NCBI GenBank assembly: GCA_041660165.1
Contig: JBAZWW010000006.1
Location: forward strand, 10,337 to 74,336
DNA from: Patescibacteria group bacterium
GTDB lineage: Bacteria > Patescibacteriota > Patescibacteriia > UBA9934
Reading direction: 5' to 3'
Length of the DNA: 64,000 nucleotides
The notes beneath the pieces are model-generated. The model was given only the letters and a program-made list of their open reading frames with translations. It had not been told where the DNA came from and searched no databases. Below, in pieces: positions 4,024 through 41,011 of this stretch. The stretch's first letter is position 1, and each line of letters starts with the position of its first letter. The position numbers and the translations under genes are program-made.

Positions 4024-4877
4024 AATTGTTGCGCTTTAATACGAACTGCATATTTTTCCATGGTGTCTCGCAAGGCAATTGCGATGGGTCTCATTGAAAT
4101 TCCAAACTGCGCCAAACGTTCAGACGCCAGAAAATTATTCGAGCGCAGTTTAGTTGCCAGTCCTTGAGCTACAAGATCCTCGGCCGTGATCCACTCATTT
4201 GTATGCGAAGGATCAACCAGCTCAACATACAGCGCCATGAGATCACGGTGCTTCATAGTTCCAGGATTCGTCACGTGAAAAATGCCGGGCGCTTTCTGTT
4301 CAAGCAACTGGTGAAACACCTCGAGCATGTCATCAATCACGGTGACAGAATTCTCAACATCAATAATCTTTGGATAACGCGCCAGCTTGTCAATCAAATT
4401 TCTTGAACCGGGAATGTGATCAATCGGCATGCGCACACGGGCAATGCCCACATTCGGTAAAGTCGACAAAACCAAATCCGCCGCCAGCTTGGTGCGCGAG
4501 TACACTGGCTCCGGATTGCCATGATCATGTTCACGCCAGGCCTTGTCCGGATGCGGGGAGTCCCCGTAATAAATACAACCCGAACCCATATGCAAAAAAT
4601 AAACGCCCGCTTCCTGGCATGCCTCAGCCATAACAATCGGCAAAAGTGTGTTGCCATGGATGGTGGCCAGCCGGTTGTCCGTTACGTCGCACCAATCCAC
4701 ATTCGGCTTTCCAGTAACACCAACGGCATTCAAAACGGCGTCCGGCTGGTACCTGGCAATTTCTGCGAGTGCGTCCTCACGACTTGAAATCCTCTGATCG
4801 GATAGCACCGCCTCGTCTCCCCACGCGTTCTTGGCGCGCTGACCCAAATAGCCTTTGCCGAAAATGAGAATCTTCAT
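4020..4877 (-). CDS. rfbD: dTDP-4-dehydrorhamnose reductase
   Basis: 285 aa; RmlD-like (MKILIFGKGYLG Rossmann motif, YSRTK active-site region). 4-nt overlap with rfbA. Confidence 0.8.
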   Translation of the reverse strand: MKILIFGKGYLGQRAKNAWGDEAVLSDQRISSREDALAEIARYQPDAVLNAVGVTGKPNVDWCDVTDNRLATIHGNTLLPIVMAEACQEAGVYFLHMGSGCIYYGDSPHPDKAWREHDHGNPEPVYSRTKLAADLVLSTLPNVGIARVRMPIDHIPGSRNLIDKLARYPKIIDVENSVTVIDDMLEVFHQLLEQKAPGIFHVTNPGTMKHRDLMALYVELVDPSHTNEWITAEDLVAQGLATKLRSNNFLASERLAQFGISMRPIAIALRDTMEKYAVRIKAQQL

Positions 4878-5893
4878 AGCGAAATGTGATTATTGATGTC
4901 CTTCACGCGCTCAACTGCCCTAGCTGTCCAATCTTGATGCGCCAAAAACCACTCAACCGTCTCTTTCAAACCTTGTTCAAACATCTCGCTCCCGTACTTC
5001 GGCCTCCAGCCAAGCTCGCGCCGAATCTTTTCACTCGATAGCGAGTAACGGCGGTCATGGCCGGGGCGATCAGCTACATAAGCGAGCAAGGTCTCAGGCT
5101 TGCCGAGAATACCCAAAATCATTTTCGCGATATCTATGTTCGCTCGCTCATTGTCCGCGCCGATATTATAAACCCCGCCAAAGACCCCGCGTTCCAGCAC
5201 GGCCAAAATGGCCGAGCAATGATCCCCAACGTGCAGCCAATCACGCACATACTTGCCGTCGCCATAAAGCGGTAACGGTTGATCAGCAAGTGCCTTCGAA
5301 ATAAAAAATGGGATGATCTTTTCCGGGAAATGATACGGGCCGTAATTGTTCGCCGCGTGCGTGACCATCACTGGCGTGCCGTAGGTTTTGAAATACGCTC
5401 GGCACAGCAAATCTCCGCCAGCCTTGCTGGCCGAGTACGGAGAATTCGGCTCGAACGTGTCAGTCTCCACACTCGGAAAACCGGAGTCGAGCGGGTGCGC
5501 GCCAAAGACCTCGTCCGTAGAAATATGTACGAAAGCGGTTGTCTTATGTTTCTTCACGGCCTCGAGCAGAACCTGTACGCCGAGCACGTTCGTGCGCACA
5601 AAATCCGCCGCTCCCCCATGGATAGAACGATCAACGTGCGTTTCCGCGGCAAAGTTCACAATGGCATCCGGTTTAAAATCTTCAAAGACTTTATCGACGA
5701 GTCCAACACTCGTAATGTCCCCCTTCACAAATCTATACCGAGGATCCGACTCAATATCCTGTAAATTTTCCGAATTCCCCGCATACGTCAGCAGGTCATA
5801 ATTCAGCACCTGCACAAACCTCCGCTCATGCAAAACATGACGAACAAAGTTCGACCCAATAAACCCCGCGCCTCCTGTAACGAGCAATTTCAT
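4874..5893 (-). CDS. rfbB: dTDP-glucose 4,6-dehydratase
   Basis: 339 aa; TGGAGFIGSNFV, YSASKAGGDLL (YxxxK), a typical RmlB short-chain dehydrogenase. 4-nt overlap with rfbD. Confidence 0.85.
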   Translation of the reverse strand: MKLLVTGGAGFIGSNFVRHVLHERRFVQVLNYDLLTYAGNSENLQDIESDPRYRFVKGDITSVGLVDKVFEDFKPDAIVNFAAETHVDRSIHGGAADFVRTNVLGVQVLLEAVKKHKTTAFVHISTDEVFGAHPLDSGFPSVETDTFEPNSPYSASKAGGDLLCRAYFKTYGTPVMVTHAANNYGPYHFPEKIIPFFISKALADQPLPLYGDGKYVRDWLHVGDHCSAILAVLERGVFGGVYNIGADNERANIDIAKMILGILGKPETLLAYVADRPGHDRRYSLSSEKIRRELGWRPKYGSEMFEQGLKETVEWFLAHQDWTARAVERVKDINNHISL

Positions 5894-32256: not shown

Positions 32257-33642
32257 TTATCTAAGATGTTTCTCGGCCCATTCTTTCAAAACGAGCGTGG
32301 CCCGCACGTCATCTTCGTTGTACTCGATAATATCTTTGAGCGAGGCCTCATCAGCCTGTGTCAACCACTTCTCAAACCATAGCACGGAATTCAAACCAGA
32401 GGCATCTTCATGGCGCCAGCGGAAACCAAGAAACTGAGCAATATCCTTGAGGCTGTAAAACGACAGCGGGAAAACCACGGCCTCGCGCAGACGCACAAGC
32501 AAATCTACGCCCTGCTCTTCGAGCATGGAAATGACTTCAATCGGCGTGTCATATTTCTCGCCCAGCTCTTTGAAAGTCGCTTGTTCGCTCCAGCCGTAGT
32601 GATACATGGGCACGCCGGGATACTTTTTCATGAAATCAACAAACTCTTCCCAGGCTCGGCGTTCATCCTTCGGATCTTTCGCCAGGAAGGAGTGATACAC
32701 ATCAATGCCATGACCCTTCTCAAGCACTCCAAAAAGATAATGCACGTTGCGCAAGGGATCGCTTTCTACATCGACAATAAGAATGAGTTCTGACTCCGGC
32801 AGATCAATTGCGCCAACGCGAAGATACCGGTTTTCAGCGAGTGCTCGCGCCTGGAGATGCAGGAAGTCGAGACGATCCCTCGTCACGCCGGTAACTCGAG
32901 CCGCCACGAGATCAACGTTCACGCGAGCGAGCTCGGACACCGTTTTGAAACCGGCAGATTCAAGCTCCTTCACTTCGCTTCGCCAGATGCGGTTCAACCT
33001 GGAGAGCGAGTCGCACTCGATTGATTCATTTTTGCAGACAGAAAACCAAGGCGACTGTTTGCAATCGCTCGTCAAAAAATGGGGCTCTTCGCTTCCGTCG
33101 AGGATCCGCTCAATCGCATCGAGGGTCAACCGGTATTTCACAAGCGTGTCCTCGAGCAAGTATGACTCTATCTCCCCCGTGGCCCGCATCACGTACCCCT
33201 GCACTGGTTTTGTCCCCTGGAGCAGGCCGAGCAATTCCGCGTAAAAACAACCCTGCATTCTGAACTCGTCCTTCAAGTGTCTTGAGCGCTTGATGTCGCA
33301 CGCTACATAGTAATAGTTGCCGAGCTTGGACTTCCCTTCTACGCGCTCTAACAGGTCAGGACGAGCCACAAATCGGCCGTGCACAAGAGCCCCCGAGTAG
33401 ATGCTCGGCGTTCCCTTTTTCATTTCAGCGAGGGTTTGCTCAAAAGCGAGTTCAATATCGTCGGCCGAAATTTCCACAACATTGCGAGTCTTCAAAAGCT
33501 CGCGCTCTACAACTGGCAAAAGACCGTCCTGCTGGAGACGGTCTTTCAAATCGTTCTCTCTGCCCTCCCCCTTGGCGTCATGCGCAATCCAAGATGGGCA
33601 TTTGAGATACTGGTAGAAATGTCTTTCGCTGATGGTTTTCAT
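32257..33642 (-). CDS. TM0106-family predicted nuclease (RecB-like PD-(D/E)xK domain plus RNase-H-like/DnaQ-like domain)
   Basis: 461 aa; YYVACDIKRS (D/E-x-K), ILIVDVESDP and YNEDDV exonuclease-like motifs. Confidence 0.5.
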   Translation of the reverse strand: MKTISERHFYQYLKCPSWIAHDAKGEGRENDLKDRLQQDGLLPVVERELLKTRNVVEISADDIELAFEQTLAEMKKGTPSIYSGALVHGRFVARPDLLERVEGKSKLGNYYYVACDIKRSRHLKDEFRMQGCFYAELLGLLQGTKPVQGYVMRATGEIESYLLEDTLVKYRLTLDAIERILDGSEEPHFLTSDCKQSPWFSVCKNESIECDSLSRLNRIWRSEVKELESAGFKTVSELARVNVDLVAARVTGVTRDRLDFLHLQARALAENRYLRVGAIDLPESELILIVDVESDPLRNVHYLFGVLEKGHGIDVYHSFLAKDPKDERRAWEEFVDFMKKYPGVPMYHYGWSEQATFKELGEKYDTPIEVISMLEEQGVDLLVRLREAVVFPLSFYSLKDIAQFLGFRWRHEDASGLNSVLWFEKWLTQADEASLKDIIEYNEDDVRATLVLKEWAEKHLR

Positions 33643-34319
33643 TTTGCATCTTCAACCGTCACTTTCACCATCTTCTGTTCTGCACGCGGACGGTCACTGC
33701 CGTCAACGGGAGTTTCTGCGATGGCATCCACGAACTCCATGCCCGAAATCACTTTGCCAAAAATGGTGTAGAGATGATCCAACGGTACGTCTTTATGCAT
33801 GATGAAGAACTGACTGCCATTGGTATTCGAACCGGCATTAGCCATAGCGAGTGTTCCGCGCGTATACGTTCTGGCGTCCTTCAGCTCGTCAGCGAACTGG
33901 TAGCCAGGACCGCCGGATCCCGTTCCTGTTGGATCTCCGCCCTGGATCATAAAATCTTTGATCACTCGATGAAAAATCAGGCCATCGTAATAGCCCTGCT
34001 TAGCCAGCGAGATAAAGTTGGACACGGCCAGCGGAGCGGTGTCCGGATAAAGTTCGAGCACGACGTCGCCCTTTGCGGTAGTGATGCGAACTTGCTTCTT
34101 CTCAATTTCGCTTGCCGGCAACTTACCAACTGACGAATATGCCTTCATAGGTTCGGTTGTTTTTTGAGACAAAGAATCCGACGCTGGTTTTACCACAACA
34201 TCGGAAATTCCGGTAGGTTCGTCTTTCGAGGTCGTCAAATCAGTCGTAGAACTCTGGACACAACCGGCGCCCAGCGTCATGACAAGAAAGGCAACAGAAA
34301 CAAGAGGCGCGAATCGCAT
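33639..34319 (-). CDS. Secreted peptidyl-prolyl cis-trans isomerase, cyclophilin type
   Basis: 226 aa; signal/lipoprotein N-terminus (LGAGC); FHRVIKDFMIQGGDPTGTGSGGPGYQF. Confidence 0.85.
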   Translation of the reverse strand: MRFAPLVSVAFLVMTLGAGCVQSSTTDLTTSKDEPTGISDVVVKPASDSLSQKTTEPMKAYSSVGKLPASEIEKKQVRITTAKGDVVLELYPDTAPLAVSNFISLAKQGYYDGLIFHRVIKDFMIQGGDPTGTGSGGPGYQFADELKDARTYTRGTLAMANAGSNTNGSQFFIMHKDVPLDHLYTIFGKVISGMEFVDAIAETPVDGSDRPRAEQKMVKVTVEDAK

Positions 34320-34741: not shown

Positions 34742-35572
34742 TTAGGCGATACTCTTTTTTGTTGGCTGTTTCAAAAAGTTTTGCTTTGACACAATCGGCC
34801 GGCCAAGTTTTTTCTCAAGTTGTTTTCTTGCACCGCCGGCAATTGTGCCACCGGCTCTGGCGTCGGCTTTGAGTTTCTTTACGCCTTTCGAATTCTCGTT
34901 GCGATGGATCTCCGTAGTCGAACGCTCACCGAGCATGTTAAAGATGAGCTCGAAATCATCCATATGATCGCGCAGATTCTCGCGTTTCAAGCCCTTGAGC
35001 TTTTTGTACTCAGTTGGCGTAACCCCAAAAGTGGCTTTAGAGATTTCTGCCGTCAAAATCTCATAATCGCCACTTTCTTTGGCCCCGCGATTTTTCCATT
35101 CGTCCGTAAGCTCTTCGCGGATGACGATTCCGCGCATGCGCTTCTCAATCCAGTCTTCGTTGTATCCCTTCAGCTTGTAGAGTATGCGGGTACGCTTTGT
35201 TGCGAGTTCGGGATTCTCGATCTCCTGCACACGCTCAAATCCAACCTTGGCAAGCCAACGCTTGAAGGGTTCTGCTTTAGGAGAAGGAACAGATTGAATT
35301 ATGCGAAACATGCCCTCAATATCAGCACAATCCGTCTCTCGCATCTTCCCGTCCGGAGCTTCCAATTTCAACTGGTGACATTTTGTCACCACTTCACTTC
35401 CCTCTTCTCGTAGCCGTTGAGATAACTTATTCCAATATTTTCTCGCCACATAATCATCCTCCTGGTCAATGAGCGCCCGAATAACATCCACCACCGAAAA
35501 CCACCACTCACCATTGACAAGTGCCTTGCGTATCTCCTTACCCTTGAACAATGCAATGTGGTTGTTCGTCAT
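34742..35572 (-). CDS. DinD-like DNA-damage-inducible protein (N-terminal Bro-N domain)
   Basis: 276 aa; Bro-N signature LFKGKEIRKALVNGEWWFSVVDVIRAL; C-terminal half parallels E. coli DinD (GLKRENLRDHMDDFELIFNMLGERSTTEI...). Confidence 0.65.
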   Translation of the reverse strand: MTNNHIALFKGKEIRKALVNGEWWFSVVDVIRALIDQEDDYVARKYWNKLSQRLREEGSEVVTKCHQLKLEAPDGKMRETDCADIEGMFRIIQSVPSPKAEPFKRWLAKVGFERVQEIENPELATKRTRILYKLKGYNEDWIEKRMRGIVIREELTDEWKNRGAKESGDYEILTAEISKATFGVTPTEYKKLKGLKRENLRDHMDDFELIFNMLGERSTTEIHRNENSKGVKKLKADARAGGTIAGGARKQLEKKLGRPIVSKQNFLKQPTKKSIA

Positions 35573-35581
35573 ATGTTCGTA

Positions 35582-35806
35582 TCATACCACATCTGAAACA
35601 CTTCCCTGCCAGCCCCAATCTTTAATAACTTTCGCCAGCTCCTCCTTCAAATCCGCTTTGCCAAGTTTGCACTCCTGAAACGGCCCGCTAAAAAATGGCT
35701 TCATCTTGTCCCATATAATGCCGTAGGCTTCCTGGATACGAGCCGAGAATTTCGGCGAGAGAAGCGTCATGCCGTCGGCGTCAAAGAGAATAGCCTTGTA
35801 GGTCAT
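35582..35806 (-). pseudogene. HAD-superfamily hydrolase N-terminal fragment (74 aa; motif I only)
   Basis: AILFDADGMTLL is HAD motif I (DxDG[TV]); the ORF stops before cap/motifs II-IV; wedged between the Fic and DinD-like genes with 3-nt and 9-nt gaps. Confidence 0.4.
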
Positions 35807-35809
35807 AAA

Positions 35810-36427
35810 CTATGATTTTGGTTTTCGACTCAGCCCGGCGTAAACAATCCTCTCCATCGGTAAATACTGCTTGGACATGCCTTTAATACACGCATGGATA
35901 TATTCATCTTGAGTTTTCTTGGCCCAGTCAATCGGATAGTATCCACTGTTTACTACCAAGAGATCAAGGAACAGACGAATCGTTCGGCCATTTCCTTCCC
36001 GGAAAGGATGAATCGCATTCAGCTCGCTATGTAAGAACGCAACCTTCTTTGCCATCTGCCTCTTAGTATCACTGTCCTTCGGGGTGTTGAGCTTAAAACT
36101 AGCCTCAAACTCTTTCAGTGAGGTTGGCAAATGAGCCAAAGCGGCAAACTGCATTCCATTCTTAGCAATGTCCACCGTTCTCACCTTTCCTGCCCAAGTA
36201 TAGAGCGGGGAAAGAAAATACTGATGAATCTCAAAAAGTGTCTTGGGGCCAAATCTCATTCTACCCTGAGCAAGCAAATCAAAAAAATACTCGTATGCAT
36301 CAGAAAAAAGATGTGTTTCGGCATCATCAAGCGCTGCTTGAGTATGAATTCCGAGTTTATTTTTCAAAACTTTACCATCCATCCCAGATGCTTCACCGCC
36401 TACACTATAGCGAGAATGCTCTGCCAT
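35810..36427 (-). CDS. Fic/Doc-family protein (putative AMP/phospho-transferase)
   Basis: 205 aa; canonical Fic motif HPFREGNGRTIRLFLDLL. Confidence 0.8.
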   Translation of the reverse strand: MAEHSRYSVGGEASGMDGKVLKNKLGIHTQAALDDAETHLFSDAYEYFFDLLAQGRMRFGPKTLFEIHQYFLSPLYTWAGKVRTVDIAKNGMQFAALAHLPTSLKEFEASFKLNTPKDSDTKRQMAKKVAFLHSELNAIHPFREGNGRTIRLFLDLLVVNSGYYPIDWAKKTQDEYIHACIKGMSKQYLPMERIVYAGLSRKPKS

Positions 36428-36616
36428 AGCGTTTTAATACCTTAATAATTGAGGCGTTATTCCTCGCTCTGGCCACGCTCTGCCCCTCCATTTTTGAAGA
36501 TTGAGCCACGGCCTTCTTTATAGCAATTTTGGAAATTGAGACGCCTTTGGTCATACAAAAACCATCTTTATATTATCTATATTCTATCATTAGCTACTTA
36601 TAATATCAATCTACCC

Positions 36617-37162
36617 TTAGCGTTTCAAATATTCCTCCCGGCTCATCACCTTTCTCAGGTCAGTAAATTTGTCGAGACAGACGATTCCCTGCAGATGATC
36701 ATACTCATGCTGAATACATTTTGCGAGTAAGCCGTCCGCGGAAACGGTGAACGGTTTTCCGTCAGCATCGTATGCTTGAATGGTAATTTTTGACGGTCGT
36801 TTCACGGGACCGAATAATTGGCCATGCGCTAAACTTCCGCAACCTTCGTACAGGAGAGTTTTGGTTTTCGATAAAGCAATGATCCGCGGATTTATGTAGA
36901 CGCAAAGTACTGAAGCTTCTTTGACTGCTTTTCGCGTAGCGGTCTTTCGTATTTCCGTCACAAAAATCTGCAACTCACTCCCAATCTGCGGGCCGGCCAT
37001 GCCGATCAATCCGTGATGGCGCATGTGGGCAATGAGGGACGCAATGACTGATCGAGTTTCTGGCGAGGAAATATCTGTCACTCGACGAGCCTTCTGTCGG
37101 ATAATCGAGTTCCCCACTTGAATGATGGGTTTCATTTTGAGGCTCATAGAATGTTGCATCAT
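36617..37162 (-). CDS. def: Peptide deformylase
   Basis: 181 aa; GLIGMAGPQIG (motif 1), EGCGSL (motif 2), QHEYDHLQG (motif 3). Confidence 0.85.
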   Translation of the reverse strand: MMQHSMSLKMKPIIQVGNSIIRQKARRVTDISSPETRSVIASLIAHMRHHGLIGMAGPQIGSELQIFVTEIRKTATRKAVKEASVLCVYINPRIIALSKTKTLLYEGCGSLAHGQLFGPVKRPSKITIQAYDADGKPFTVSADGLLAKCIQHEYDHLQGIVCLDKFTDLRKVMSREEYLKR

Positions 37163-40467: not shown

Positions 40468-40531
40468 AGCGCCCCGCCTCTCACCGGTCGATACCGGAAC
40501 GGAGAGATGCCCGGGGCGTTTGTTGTTTTAT
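40468..40531. repeat. 64-bp direct repeat copy 2 (terminator), shared convergently with hicA
   Basis: Identical to 39366-39429; ends at the hicA stop codon. Confidence 0.85.
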
Positions 40532-40758
40532 AACAGCTTTATAAACTCCTCACGGCTCAAACCTGCTTGGACCATAATTGATGCAACCACATCTCCGGGT
40601 AAATCAAACTTTGTATGAAAAGGAATCGTTACTCGAAGGGCGGATTTTGAAGAATGGCGAAGTTGGACATGGCTTCCCTTCTGATGATGGATGACGAACC
40701 CGGCGCGGAGCAGGGCTTGCAATACTTTTTTCGGCTTCAAGGACGGCAGCTTGCTCAT
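40528..40758 (-). CDS. hicA: HicA-family mRNA interferase toxin
   Basis: From the internal Met: MSKLPSLKPKKVLQALLRAGFVIHHQKGSHVQLRH... (YcfA/HicA fold with the GSH motif). The N-terminal 47 aa of the track ORF are probably not translated. Confidence 0.7.
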   Translation of the reverse strand: MSKLPSLKPKKVLQALLRAGFVIHHQKGSHVQLRHSSKSALRVTIPFHTKFDLPGDVVASIMVQAGLSREEFIKLL

Positions 40759-40762
40759 ATCA

Positions 40763-41011
40763 CTAGACTGCAACAAGCATCTCTTCATGAATGAACGAGC
40801 GAGACGGGTGGAGCGTTTGCTTATCTTTACGTAAACCCTCAAGATGGCACGCAATCGCCTCATGAGCCATGTCACGAGCCTCTTCAAACGTTCGACCAAA
40901 AGTCACTACTCCTGGCAACGAGGGAGCCGTTACCTGATAACCCCCGCGCACTTTTTCATAAAGCACGGTCACCGCAAATTCTTCTGTGGTTGTAACCGGT
41001 TTAGACTTCAT
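40763..41011 (-). CDS. hicB: HicB-family antitoxin (UPF0150)
   Basis: 82 aa; YQVTAPSLPGVVTFGRTFEEARDMAHEAIACHLEGL matches the HicB RNase-H-like fold; 4-nt gap to hicA. Confidence 0.7.
   Translation of the reverse strand: MKSKPVTTTEEFAVTVLYEKVRGGYQVTAPSLPGVVTFGRTFEEARDMAHEAIACHLEGLRKDKQTLHPSRSFIHEEMLVAV

Follow-up and report, generated by a model that had tools for sequence, protein, structure and literature searches.

Four ORFs lie close together on the minus strand next to def in the window, i.e., the whole 64,000-nucleotide stretch of a Patescibacteria metagenome-assembled genome (MAG) that was analyzed. Starting from def, the features are the following.

36617-37162: def, the neighbor of ficA across a 62-nt gap.
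36555-36616, minus strand: the true def-ficA intergenic region, 62 nt with 24% GC, the probable ficA-ficT promoter.
36405-36554, minus strand: ficA, a 49-aa ORF (MTKGVSISKIAIKKAVAQSSKMEGQSVARARNNASIIKVLKRYGRAFSL), predicted class I Fic antitoxin.
35810-36427, minus strand: ficT, 205 aa, predicted single-domain class I Fic toxin.
35582-35806, minus strand: truncated HAD-hydrolase gene, 74 aa, with motif I only, starting 3 nt after the ficT stop codon.
34742-35572, minus strand: gene for a DinD-family protein, 276 aa, with an N-terminal Bro-N domain and a helical C-terminal domain; 9 nt separate the gene from the stop codon of the HAD fragment.

The initial annotation of this DNA had described the Fic ORF with a canonical HPFREGNGR motif, the 74-aa ORF with HAD motif I only, and the DinD-like Bro-N ORF. 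The positions, the spacing and the motifs were all borne out.

FicT carries the Fic signature HPFREGNGRTIR at residues 140 to 151 (H140-P-F-R-E144-G-N-G-R148-T-I-R151), which satisfies HxFx(D/E)GNGRxxR. It scored 59.9 bits against the Pfam Fic model (cutoff, 24), and the PADLOC PDC-S04 model PDLC04839 matched it with an E value of 2.8e-55. The best PDB matches were 8wt0 (Fic-1; E = 1.4e-23) and VbhT (3zcb/3shg; 1.4e-19), with EcFicT at 3.2e-12. The NCBIfam equivalog scores were far below the cutoffs for VbhT (85.7 versus 800), NmFic (81.4 versus 230) and EcFic (78 versus 181), and the target of FicT is therefore not transferable by orthology. Judged by these matches, FicT is a member of the Fic family and not an orthologue of VbhT, NmFic or EcFic. 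At E ≤ 1e-10, 1,766 relatives of FicT were detected; across 27 relatives, the Fic motif and the N-terminal residues M1, S5, R6 and Y7 were invariant. The dN/dS ratio of ficT was 0.08, indicating purifying selection.

The lack of an intrinsic inhibitory helix separates class I Fic proteins from classes II and III (PMC5033356). A regular-expression search for the inhibitory motif [ST]xxxE[GN] over the 205-aa Fic protein gave no match, indicating that FicT belongs to class I and requires a separate partner. The need for a partner, which the initial annotation had assumed, thus stands. Its other premise, that no antitoxin was visible, was wrong because the 49-aa ficA ORF lies in what had been taken for a 190-bp AT-rich spacer (36428-36616). 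This region is actually 189 nt long with 37.6% GC, and ficA occupies 150 of the 189 nt. According to the ORF list, ficA overlaps the start of ficT by 23 nt.

FicA contains the inhibition motif S19-SKM-E23-G24 (SSKMEG, residues 19 to 24), and among the four ORFs, [ST]xxxE[GN] is confined to it; FicT, the HAD fragment and the Bro-N protein have none. By chance, the motif occurs in 2.2% of the 40- to 60-aa stop-to-stop segments in the window. Every close Fic relative that was examined (six other loci) has a small gene homologous to ficA in front of it. The overlap with Fic is an identical 23 nt in five of these, L166, L167, L086, L087 and L107, and 8 nt in L006. The representative library yielded 12 matches to FicA. 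In 15 FicA sequences, S19, E23 and G24 were invariant and made up three of the six invariant columns; the subfamily consensus is …KAVAQSSKMEG.S..RAKKN…GRAFS. An AF2 model of FicA placed helices at residues 9 to 23, 27 to 32 and 34 to 44, with helix 1 ending at E23, albeit at low confidence (pLDDT, 62; pTM, 0.29), and a fold search with this low-confidence model returned no matches.

The 49-aa ORF might instead have arisen by chance in an AT-rich leader, leaving Fic uninhibited or nontoxic. No Pfam or NCBIfam model matched FicA at E ≤ 0.1, a PDB sequence search with FicA alone and with the family profile returned only chance-level matches to histone H2B, and some gene callers skipped the ORF (L001, L003 and L166). 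However, more than 15 sequences show conservation of the gene at the protein level, the motif residues being invariant, and its frame and overlap are identical in independent loci. The dN/dS ratio against L166 was 0.28, which indicates purifying selection. Several NCBI and JGI records also call the ORF as a gene, and the NCBI annotation of the MAG includes it (L002, 5874-6023). A chance origin is therefore exceedingly improbable. Motif, position, size and conservation point to the 49-aa ORF as FicA in function. Significant similarity to known FicA proteins was not detected: alignment of the FicA family with VbhA and EcFicA by hhalign gave a probability of <1%, both reference sequences being approximate. 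Querying metagenomes with the Fic protein alone gave no matches. Profile scans of genomes and metagenomes recovered, among the matches listed, mostly distant Fic relatives with 30 to 40% identity. Many of the distant relatives listed had no upstream motif ORF, and these presumably represent other classes of Fic protein or other gene arrangements.

The 62-nt gap between def and ficA probably holds the promoter of the ficA-ficT transcript, as suggested by two overlapping promoter-like -35/-10 sites at 36628-36600 and 36609-36581. Both are TG-extended with 10 of 12 positions in agreement, and both are consensus matches only. DNA homology with L166 sets in some 35 nt before the ATG of ficA. No Rfam family matched the window or the supposed spacer.

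The 74-aa ORF corresponds to the first ~37% of a protein of ~200 aa. It has the native start, motif I (the DxD nucleophile; FDADGMT at residues 8 to 14, within ILFDADGMT) and part of the cap; motifs II (S/T), III (K) and IV (DD) are missing along with ~125 C-terminal residues. The fragment is collinear with the N-terminal part of full-length HAD-superfamily phosphatases (PF00702/PF13419), and FDADG is kept. Three relatives were found, two of which are also broken. One relative, L004, continues with motifs II to IV (TTNQ, GHTK and SDDHEEN) as a full gene of ~200 aa, and its repaired protein matches PF00702 over positions 1 to 191 of 191. The remaining HAD C terminus was sought across the 64-kb window and not found, and the fragment itself had no match in Pfam, NCBIfam, PADLOC, PHROG or the PDB. 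In the junction alignment, the ORF ends where it meets the leader of the Bro-N gene, at about 35585-35592. The syntenic relative L166 has no HAD fragment; between its ficT and Bro-N genes, the slot is taken by an α/β-hydrolase gene.

The initial annotation had left open whether this ORF is a gene remnant or a small protein repurposed as the Fic partner, and had named a full-length HAD gene in a relative as evidence against the latter. L004 carries such a gene, and the remnant half of the proposal stands. A repurposed partner within a Fic-HAD-DinD operon, with Fic having no dedicated antitoxin, would accord with the position of the ORF 3 nt behind Fic, with its intact reading from the native start codon and with the small number of relatives of its N-terminal part, most of them broken too. 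However, the ORF has no [ST]xxxE[GN] motif and is absent from L166 and every other Fic locus that was searched, and a proper antitoxin gene is already located upstream of ficT. Its location downstream of Fic also differs from the upstream position described for FicA genes (PMC5033356). Its sequence is collinear with a normal HAD hydrolase N terminus and breaks off at a recombination junction. A partner role is very unlikely on these grounds and is already largely refuted. Since L166 has an α/β-hydrolase gene in the same place, the 74-aa ORF is, as far as its sequence tells, a 3'-truncated and catalytically dead HAD remnant in a variable slot and not a Fic partner.

The Bro-N domain (PF02498) of the last ORF spans residues 14 to 109 (E = 1.5e-12; 48.4 bits versus a cutoff of 25.6). 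The PADLOC PDC-S13 model PDLC04920 matched the protein at positions 1 to 273 of 286 (E = 2.7e-117), PDLC04919 matched it at 3.5e-5, and phrog_15286 matched at 5e-91. E. coli DinD, in turn, matched PDLC04919 at 2.4e-121 and PDLC04920 at 2.2e-16. The two proteins thus belong to different submodels of PDC-S13, and they resemble each other only weakly in direct alignment (BLASTP E = 0.015; hhalign probability, 3%). They are alike in length (274 aa in E. coli DinD, 276 aa here), in the location of the Bro-N domain (residues 10 to 105 in E. coli DinD) and in a common C-terminal KGLK…L(R/L)DHM…EL motif. Because of the reciprocal cross-matches on the PDC-S13 models, the Bro-N protein is, by sequence, a real DinD-family member. 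PADLOC PDC families are candidates for phage defense only, and no experimental test of PDC-S13 was found in the literature. A PDB sequence search with the Bro-N protein gave no matches.

At least 8,000 relatives of the Bro-N protein were detected at E ≤ 1e-5. L166 has a copy with 87% identity at the same site, and the protein is ~80% identical between Patescibacteria and Nitrospinae despite saturated synonymous sites, evolving at a slower rate than MetK, which is encoded at the same locus. The gene occurs alone in many unrelated contexts and was found beside Fic only in this lineage and at one other locus (L107). A hairpin after the gene was no better than in shuffled sequence (z = -0.16) and gives no support for a terminator. 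The DinD-family gene was repeatedly found beside toxin-antitoxin (TA), CRISPR and other defense-type genes. The predicted fold of the DinD-like protein resembles that of DdrC. DdrC has been described as specific to Deinococcus.

The initial annotation had treated Fic, the HAD fragment and the DinD-like gene as one tight operon. FicA-FicT and the DinD-like protein could form one unit in which, for instance, Bro-N senses phage or DNA damage and controls Fic toxin release, while the HAD fragment would be incidental. All four ORFs follow closely on one another on a single strand, uninterrupted by any predicted terminator, and the order ficA-ficT-(slot)-Bro-N is retained in L166. At the nonsyntenic locus L107, a Bro-N homologue with 49% identity is located 1 kb upstream of ficA-ficT. 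The PADLOC model PDLC04841 (PDC-S04, 292 positions) was matched by the Bro-N protein at 5 to 111 and by Fic at 124 to 257, which implies that Bro-N-Fic fusion proteins exist, and both proteins fall in PADLOC families of phage defense candidates.

However, no Fic gene was found within 4 kb of ~40 loci anchored on DinD-like genes (genomes, plasmids and viral contigs), and no DinD-like gene was found within 4 kb of ~150 more distant Fic loci. The FicA-FicT pairs of L086, L087, L006, L167 and the P0009 contigs likewise occur without a DinD-like gene, so the co-occurrence check did not bear out a conserved Fic-HAD-DinD unit. The window and L166 count as one event because they are syntenic; the ficT of L107 is truncated, and what the fusion model has in common with the DinD-like protein is only a generic Bro-N domain and not the DinD C-terminal domain. 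A single functional unit is thus unlikely. Judging from its sequence and neighborhoods, the Bro-N gene is a strongly conserved member of the DinD family that stands on its own, a same-strand passenger and not a conserved part of FicTA modules; the L107 neighborhood and the PDLC04841 fusion model leave some doubt about its complete independence. A bolder proposal, which we likewise regard as doubtful, is that the Bro-N protein is a widespread and extremely constrained counterpart of DdrC that senses or binds DNA breaks or ends and is coupled here, as a sensor or regulator, to a FicA-FicT gyrase poison. The Bro-N-Fic fusion profile in PADLOC would foreshadow such coupling. In the literature search, no paper was found linking Bro-N with a Fic domain, or DdrC with DinD or Bro-N.

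The region had also been read as a mobile or defense-type island, i.e., one acquired horizontally together with the HTH_17, C39-like and nuclease genes and now without its integrase. The GC content of ficT (0.439) is the lowest among the 44 window ORFs of ≥200 aa (mean, 0.519; standard deviation, 0.027), and two TA modules, hicBA and ficAT, are located within 5 kb of each other. Relatives also differ in the genes they carry at three slots (that of def, the one separating ficT from the Bro-N gene, and the one behind the Bro-N gene), and Fic and the DinD-like protein match defense candidate models. Against this, no tRNA was found in the whole 64 kb, and the called genes include no integrase or recombinase, the latter in agreement with the initial annotation. 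No convincing flanking repeats were found, the only candidate being one 17-nt pair of marginal significance. Housekeeping genes (metK, def, and those for PPIase and a sigma factor) are interleaved. Comparison of the def-metK neighborhood with that of L166 showed synteny of the flanking genes (helicase, hicBA, metK, membrane protein and PPIase). Since L166 has ficA, ficT and the Bro-N gene at the corresponding positions and the synonymous divergence is saturated, these genes are old residents and not a recent insertion, and the island interpretation is distinctly improbable.

Because of the small upstream gene and the S/E/G motif that is invariant in its relatives, the core of the locus is very probably a complete class I Fic toxin-antitoxin module (type II TA, FicA-FicT), and the downstream ORFs are passengers. 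The module is an ordinary one: a two-gene Fic TA with a broken hydrolase gene and, separately, a DinD-like gene as neighbors, and no new three-gene system. The definition of class I Fic proteins, the FicA motif and the salt bridge from its glutamate to the second arginine of the Fic motif have been described previously (PMC5033356).

Transcription of ficA (49 aa) and ficT (205 aa) probably starts from a promoter in the AT-rich 62-nt gap that follows def, and all four ORFs may be cotranscribed. Translation of the two genes would be coupled, which is consistent with the 23-nt overlap. FicA would then bind FicT and set E23 of S19xxxE23G24 against R151, the second arginine of the Fic motif, and this contact would block productive ATP binding. 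The complex may also take AMP off again, by analogy with Fic-1/AntF. We infer the binding of FicA to FicT, the toxicity of FicT and its target, GyrB/ParE. AMPylation of GyrB/ParE, neutralized by the antitoxin, would follow the precedent of VbhT, BtrFicT and Fic-1. FicT toxins have been reported to AMPylate gyrase and topoisomerase IV (PMC5675462); EcFicT, also of class I, has no demonstrated AMPylation activity (PMC5033356), and deletion of a PDC-S04 (Fic) gene gave no phage defense phenotype in one study (10.1101/2024.12.20.629700).

No paper linking Fic TA modules with Patescibacteria was found in the literature search. If FicT indeed poisons gyrase or topoisomerase IV, the module would be another growth arrest switch in bacteria with tiny genomes rich in TA systems. 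A Fic gene that seems to have no antitoxin may simply have a missed gene call of ~50 aa, and a profile for this FicA subfamily would improve the annotation of Fic TA modules in Patescibacteria and related metagenomic lineages. The DinD-family neighbor is the more interesting lead, being unusually conserved and recurrently close to defense-type genes.

The nearest solved relative of FicT is Fic-1 of the Fic-1-AntF pair from Pseudomonas bijieensis 2P24 (PDB 8WT0), matched over residues 6 to 195. Both toxins are 205 aa long and share the HxFx(D/E)GNGRxxR signature. Both antitoxins are separate small proteins of ~50 aa, and S24 and E28 of AntF correspond to S19 and E23 of FicA. [quoted passage not shown] The two systems differ in that no PDB chain is detectably similar to FicA in sequence and in that the D-x-Y segment near the N terminus of Fic-1 is missing in FicT, which has the invariant S5-R6-Y7 instead. 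The hosts also differ, a Pseudomonas strain for Fic-1-AntF and a Patescibacteria MAG for FicT.

VbhT-VbhA of Bartonella schoenbuchensis and EcFicT-EcFicA of E. coli (Fic-YhfG) are more distant. VbhT has a C-terminal BID domain, which FicT does not have, and the Fic motif of EcFicT is degenerate, whereas that of FicT is canonical. By hhalign against the approximate reference sequences, FicA is not recognizably homologous to VbhA or EcFicA. Nevertheless, both systems have the same class I architecture as the module described here and a similar Fic domain, and VbhA and EcFicA are likewise encoded by a small upstream antitoxin gene, with [S/T]xxxE[G/N] at the end of the first helix (PMC5033356).

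All of the open reading frames (ORFs) named in the initial annotation were recovered on the minus strand at the positions listed here, and the Fic, Bro-N and Pep_deformylase assignments were backed by Pfam. The "190-bp AT-rich spacer" (36428-36616) proposed between Fic and def measured 189 nt, had a GC content of 37.6% and was mostly coding, as it is crossed by a 49-aa ORF, here designated ficA.

34742-35572, minus strand: Bro-N protein (Pfam Bro-N), start 9 nt past the 74-aa ORF
35582-35806, minus strand: 74-aa ORF, start 3 nt past the Fic stop
35810-36427, minus strand: Fic protein FicT (Pfam Fic), 205 aa, with HPFREGNGRTIR at residues 140-151
36405-36554, minus strand: ficA, 49-aa ORF, MTKGVSISKIAIKKAVAQSSKMEGQSVARARNNASIIKVLKRYGRAFSL, overlapping the Fic ATG by 23 nt
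36617-37162, minus strand: def (Pfam Pep_deformylase)

The 49-aa ORF was also called in the NCBI annotation of the Patescibacteria MAG GCA_041666805.1 (contig JBAYGE010000005.1). The true intergenic gap between ficA and def is 62 nt long with 24% GC and contains two overlapping promoter-like sites, each with 10 of 12 matches.

The sequence SSKMEG in the 49-aa ORF fits [S/T]xxxE[G/N], the defining motif of Fic antitoxins and inhibitory helices (PMC5033356). A motif search of the Fic, 74-aa and Bro-N proteins did not find it in any of them, and its chance rate was 2.2% of the 40- to 60-aa stop-to-stop segments in the window. A homologous ORF of about 49 aa was located directly upstream in every close Fic relative with DNA examined. 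The 23-nt overlap of ficA and ficT was the same in the syntenic relative L166 (Fic 65% identical), in the nonsyntenic locus L107 and in the loci L167, L086 and L087, and was 8 nt in L006. Gene callers reported a small gene 5' of Fic on the P0009 contigs (49 aa) and, with a called length of 58 aa, at the P0016 locus L167. When 1.84 billion cluster representatives were searched exhaustively with HMMER, 12 FicA relatives were returned, mostly of about 50 aa. Only six columns were invariant in the alignment of 15 FicA sequences, and S19, E23 and G24 are three of them. The dN/dS of ficA against L166 was 0.28 (41 nonoverlapping codons). The AF2 model of FicA, of low confidence (pLDDT 62), was all-helical, and its helix 1 ended at the motif glutamate E23, the geometry described for EcFicA (PMC5033356).

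FicA had no match in Pfam, NCBIfam, PADLOC or PHROG models or in any PDB chain, and hhalign against VbhA and EcFicA was not significant, so the predicted antitoxin is named FicA by function-defining features and not by demonstrated common descent. A FicA subfamily outside current profile libraries is the sole new element here and its newness is modest. The pS of ficA against L166 (36405-36554 versus 4874-5023) was 0.36, roughly half the 0.72-0.78 seen in the neighbouring genes; being derived from 41 codons only, this value hints at an extra RNA or DNA constraint, e.g., an operator or a translational-coupling structure.

For the 74-aa ORF, which the initial annotation suggested might be either a HAD gene remnant or a small partner of Fic, only three relatives were found. 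At L004, one of their loci, a 91-aa homologous ORF is followed by a frameshift and then by 113 aa with TTNQ, GHTK and SDDHEEN, i.e., HAD motifs II-IV; a relative therefore has the remaining part of the full-length gene that the initial annotation associated with simple pseudogenization. The repaired L004 protein (198 aa) matches PF00702 over positions 1-191 of 191. The 74-aa ORF aligns collinearly with this protein over the first ~37% of its length, keeps the native start and motif I, and stops at ~35585-35592, the point from which the sequence is homologous to the leader of the Bro-N gene. The missing C-terminal part was not found elsewhere in the 64 kb, and the fragment alone gave no profile match. 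By sequence, the 74-aa ORF is a 3'-truncated gene remnant, as the continuation of L004 with motifs II-IV indicates; a role as a small Fic partner was not supported, since it has no inhibition motif and is absent from L166. None of the three known members of this HAD subfamily is intact: in the window the gene breaks off at residue 74, the L005 copy (50-382) stops at residue 110, just past the motif II position, and the L004 copy (2028-2641) is split by the frameshift, possibly a sequencing error.

The window and L166 have a common backbone of helicase, hicB, hicA, metK, ficA, ficT, Bro-N gene, small membrane protein and PPIase, with 70-77% nucleotide identity in blocks. Three slots differ: def occurs in the window but not in L166, the ficT/Bro-N slot holds the HAD fragment in the window versus a 199-aa α/β Ser_hydrolase in L166, and L166 has two extra genes past the Bro-N gene. 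Synonymous sites of ficT, metK and the Bro-N gene were near or at saturation relative to L166, indicating that the Bro-N gene and the toxin-antitoxin (TA) pair have long resided at the site. No tRNA was found in the window, no integrase among its called genes, and only one marginal 17-nt repeat pair. Together with the synteny, this argues against the mobile or defence island suggested initially. At 0.439, the GC content of ficT was below that of every other large ORF in the window (44 ORFs in total, mean 0.519 ± 0.027), which fits an ultimately foreign origin, but there is no recognisable island. The direct repeat TGATGG(T/G)TTTCATTTTG (37123-37139 and 33630-33646; 16/17 identical, 3493 nt apart) overlies the regions around the start codons of def and a 461-aa RNase_H_2-like gene and is probably a chance similarity of translation-start contexts. 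In the window, def sits between metK and ficA; in the DNA alignment, L166 lacks it there and the two genes are ~22 nt apart. The hicB-hicA TA pair (~40528-41011, minus strand; 1417-1900 of L002, the NCBI-annotated record covering the window) lies ~4 kb from ficA-ficT and adjoins a DEAD/ResIII helicase, an arrangement also kept in L166.

The Bro-N protein matched PDLC04920, a model of the PADLOC phage-defence candidate family PDC-S13, over its full length (E=2.7e-117), and phrog_15286 (E=5e-91). E. coli DinD matched the PDC-S13 models PDLC04919 (2.4e-121) and PDLC04920 (2.2e-16), has its Bro-N domain at the same position and, like the window protein, carries a C-terminal KGLK…LxDHM…EL motif, although direct pairwise scores were weak. 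These likenesses justify the earlier label "DinD-like". The family is very large, with at least 8000 proteins at E≤1e-5; the best 120 share 76-87% identity and belong to Patescibacteria, Nitrospinae, Omnitrophica, Desantisbacteria and other groups. Gene contexts were mutually unrelated and included housekeeping neighbourhoods, a position beside parB in Chlorohelix and 32 IMG/VR viral contigs. On the Arcobacter cloacae plasmid pACLO (L176, 3992-4888), a 49%-identical gene is flanked by cas4 and cas1b within a type I-B cas operon, and a Parabacteroides homologue adjoins a nucleotidyltransferase/DUF86 gene pair. E. coli DinD also matched the first 267 positions of the 717-position type I specificity-subunit model PDLC03083 (E=3e-114), which implies putative DinD-HsdS fusions.

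The DinD-like protein has 80-85% amino acid identity to homologues in Nitrospinae, Magasanikbacteria and other MAGs (L169, L170, L172), with saturated pS of 0.78-0.85. Its dN against L166 was 0.09, below that of MetK (0.16), and the apparent constraint is unusually strong for a patchily distributed protein of unassigned function. The only PDB fold matches of its AF2 model (pLDDT 68) were six chains of Deinococcus DdrC (E 1e-4 to 3e-3, target-normalised TM 0.36-0.52), a protein described as Deinococcus-specific and without structural homologues (PMC9303277). A search for a sequence-level link to DdrC found none, and in a viral structure library the model matched Bro-N, KilA-N and "repressor domain" proteins with similar significance. 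The conservation and the DdrC resemblance are leads rather than findings.

Co-occurrence of Fic and DinD-like genes, which the initial annotation proposed to look for in other genomes, was conserved only in L166, where the gene order is kept but the shared synteny makes it one event, and at L107, where ficA and a truncated ficT have a 49%-identical Bro-N homologue 1 kb upstream. A model of the phage-defence candidate family PDC-S04, PDLC04841 (292 positions), is matched by the Bro-N domain at 5-111 and by Fic at 124-257, implying that fusions exist. However, ~40 DinD-like-anchored loci had no Fic within 4 kb, and no DinD-like gene was found within 4 kb for ~150 other Fic loci, nor for L086, L087, L006, L167 or the P0009 contigs. 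Functional coupling of FicA-FicT with the Bro-N gene is thus improbable; the conserved unit is FicA-FicT, and the Bro-N gene is most likely its neighbour because both have come to occupy the same TA-rich, variable spots. A literature search found no paper naming the Fic domain together with Bro-N. At L107, a metagenome contig (3880-5630) where ficT is cut at about residue 150-178, the next genes are an XRE-HTH/SocA_Panacea antitoxin-like gene and then a 111-aa ORF, which suggests disruption of one TA module by another.

FicT is a single-domain protein of 205 aa. Its signature is complete, and the check for an intrinsic inhibitory helix suggested initially was negative, placing it in class I. 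The subfamily is large (1766 matches at E≤1e-10), and its named sources are mostly Patescibacteria. PADLOC classed FicT in PDC-S04 (E=2.8e-55); deletion of a PDC-S04 gene gave no defence phenotype in one study (10.1101/2024.12.20.629700). Residues M1, S5, R6 and Y7 were invariant among relatives. In the overlap (36405-36427), one frame gives the FicA tail GRAFSL and the other MAEHSRY, the invariant N-terminus of Fic, and across the family the tail GRAFS(L/V/I) overlaps the Fic N-terminal codons. The constraint in the overlap probably comes from the Fic N-terminus, because in L006 FicA stops earlier while Fic still begins with MPEHSRY. [quoted passage not shown]

Given the observed gene structure, motif, conservation and family membership, the locus is very likely a type II FicA-FicT module, for which we infer binding, toxicity, a target and a transcript shared with the downstream ORFs. 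The promoter would sit in the 62-nt gap, and ficA and ficT would be translationally coupled via their overlap. E23 of FicA would block ATP binding at R151, free FicT would AMPylate GyrB and ParE and cause growth arrest, and the FicA-FicT complex might undo the modification. FicT scored well under the NCBIfam equivalog cutoffs of VbhT, NmFic and EcFic, so we infer its target rather than transfer it by orthology. The closest solved relatives were 8wt0 (E=1.4e-23) and VbhT (1.4e-19). Gyrase and topoisomerase IV are the AMPylation targets of VbhT and BtrFicT (PMC5675462). The best match, 8wt0, is Pseudomonas bijieensis Fic-1 bound to its antitoxin AntF, whose S24 and E28 contact R146 of Fic-1; Fic-1 AMPylates GyrB, which is also deAMPylated by the Fic-1/AntF complex (PMC13327609).
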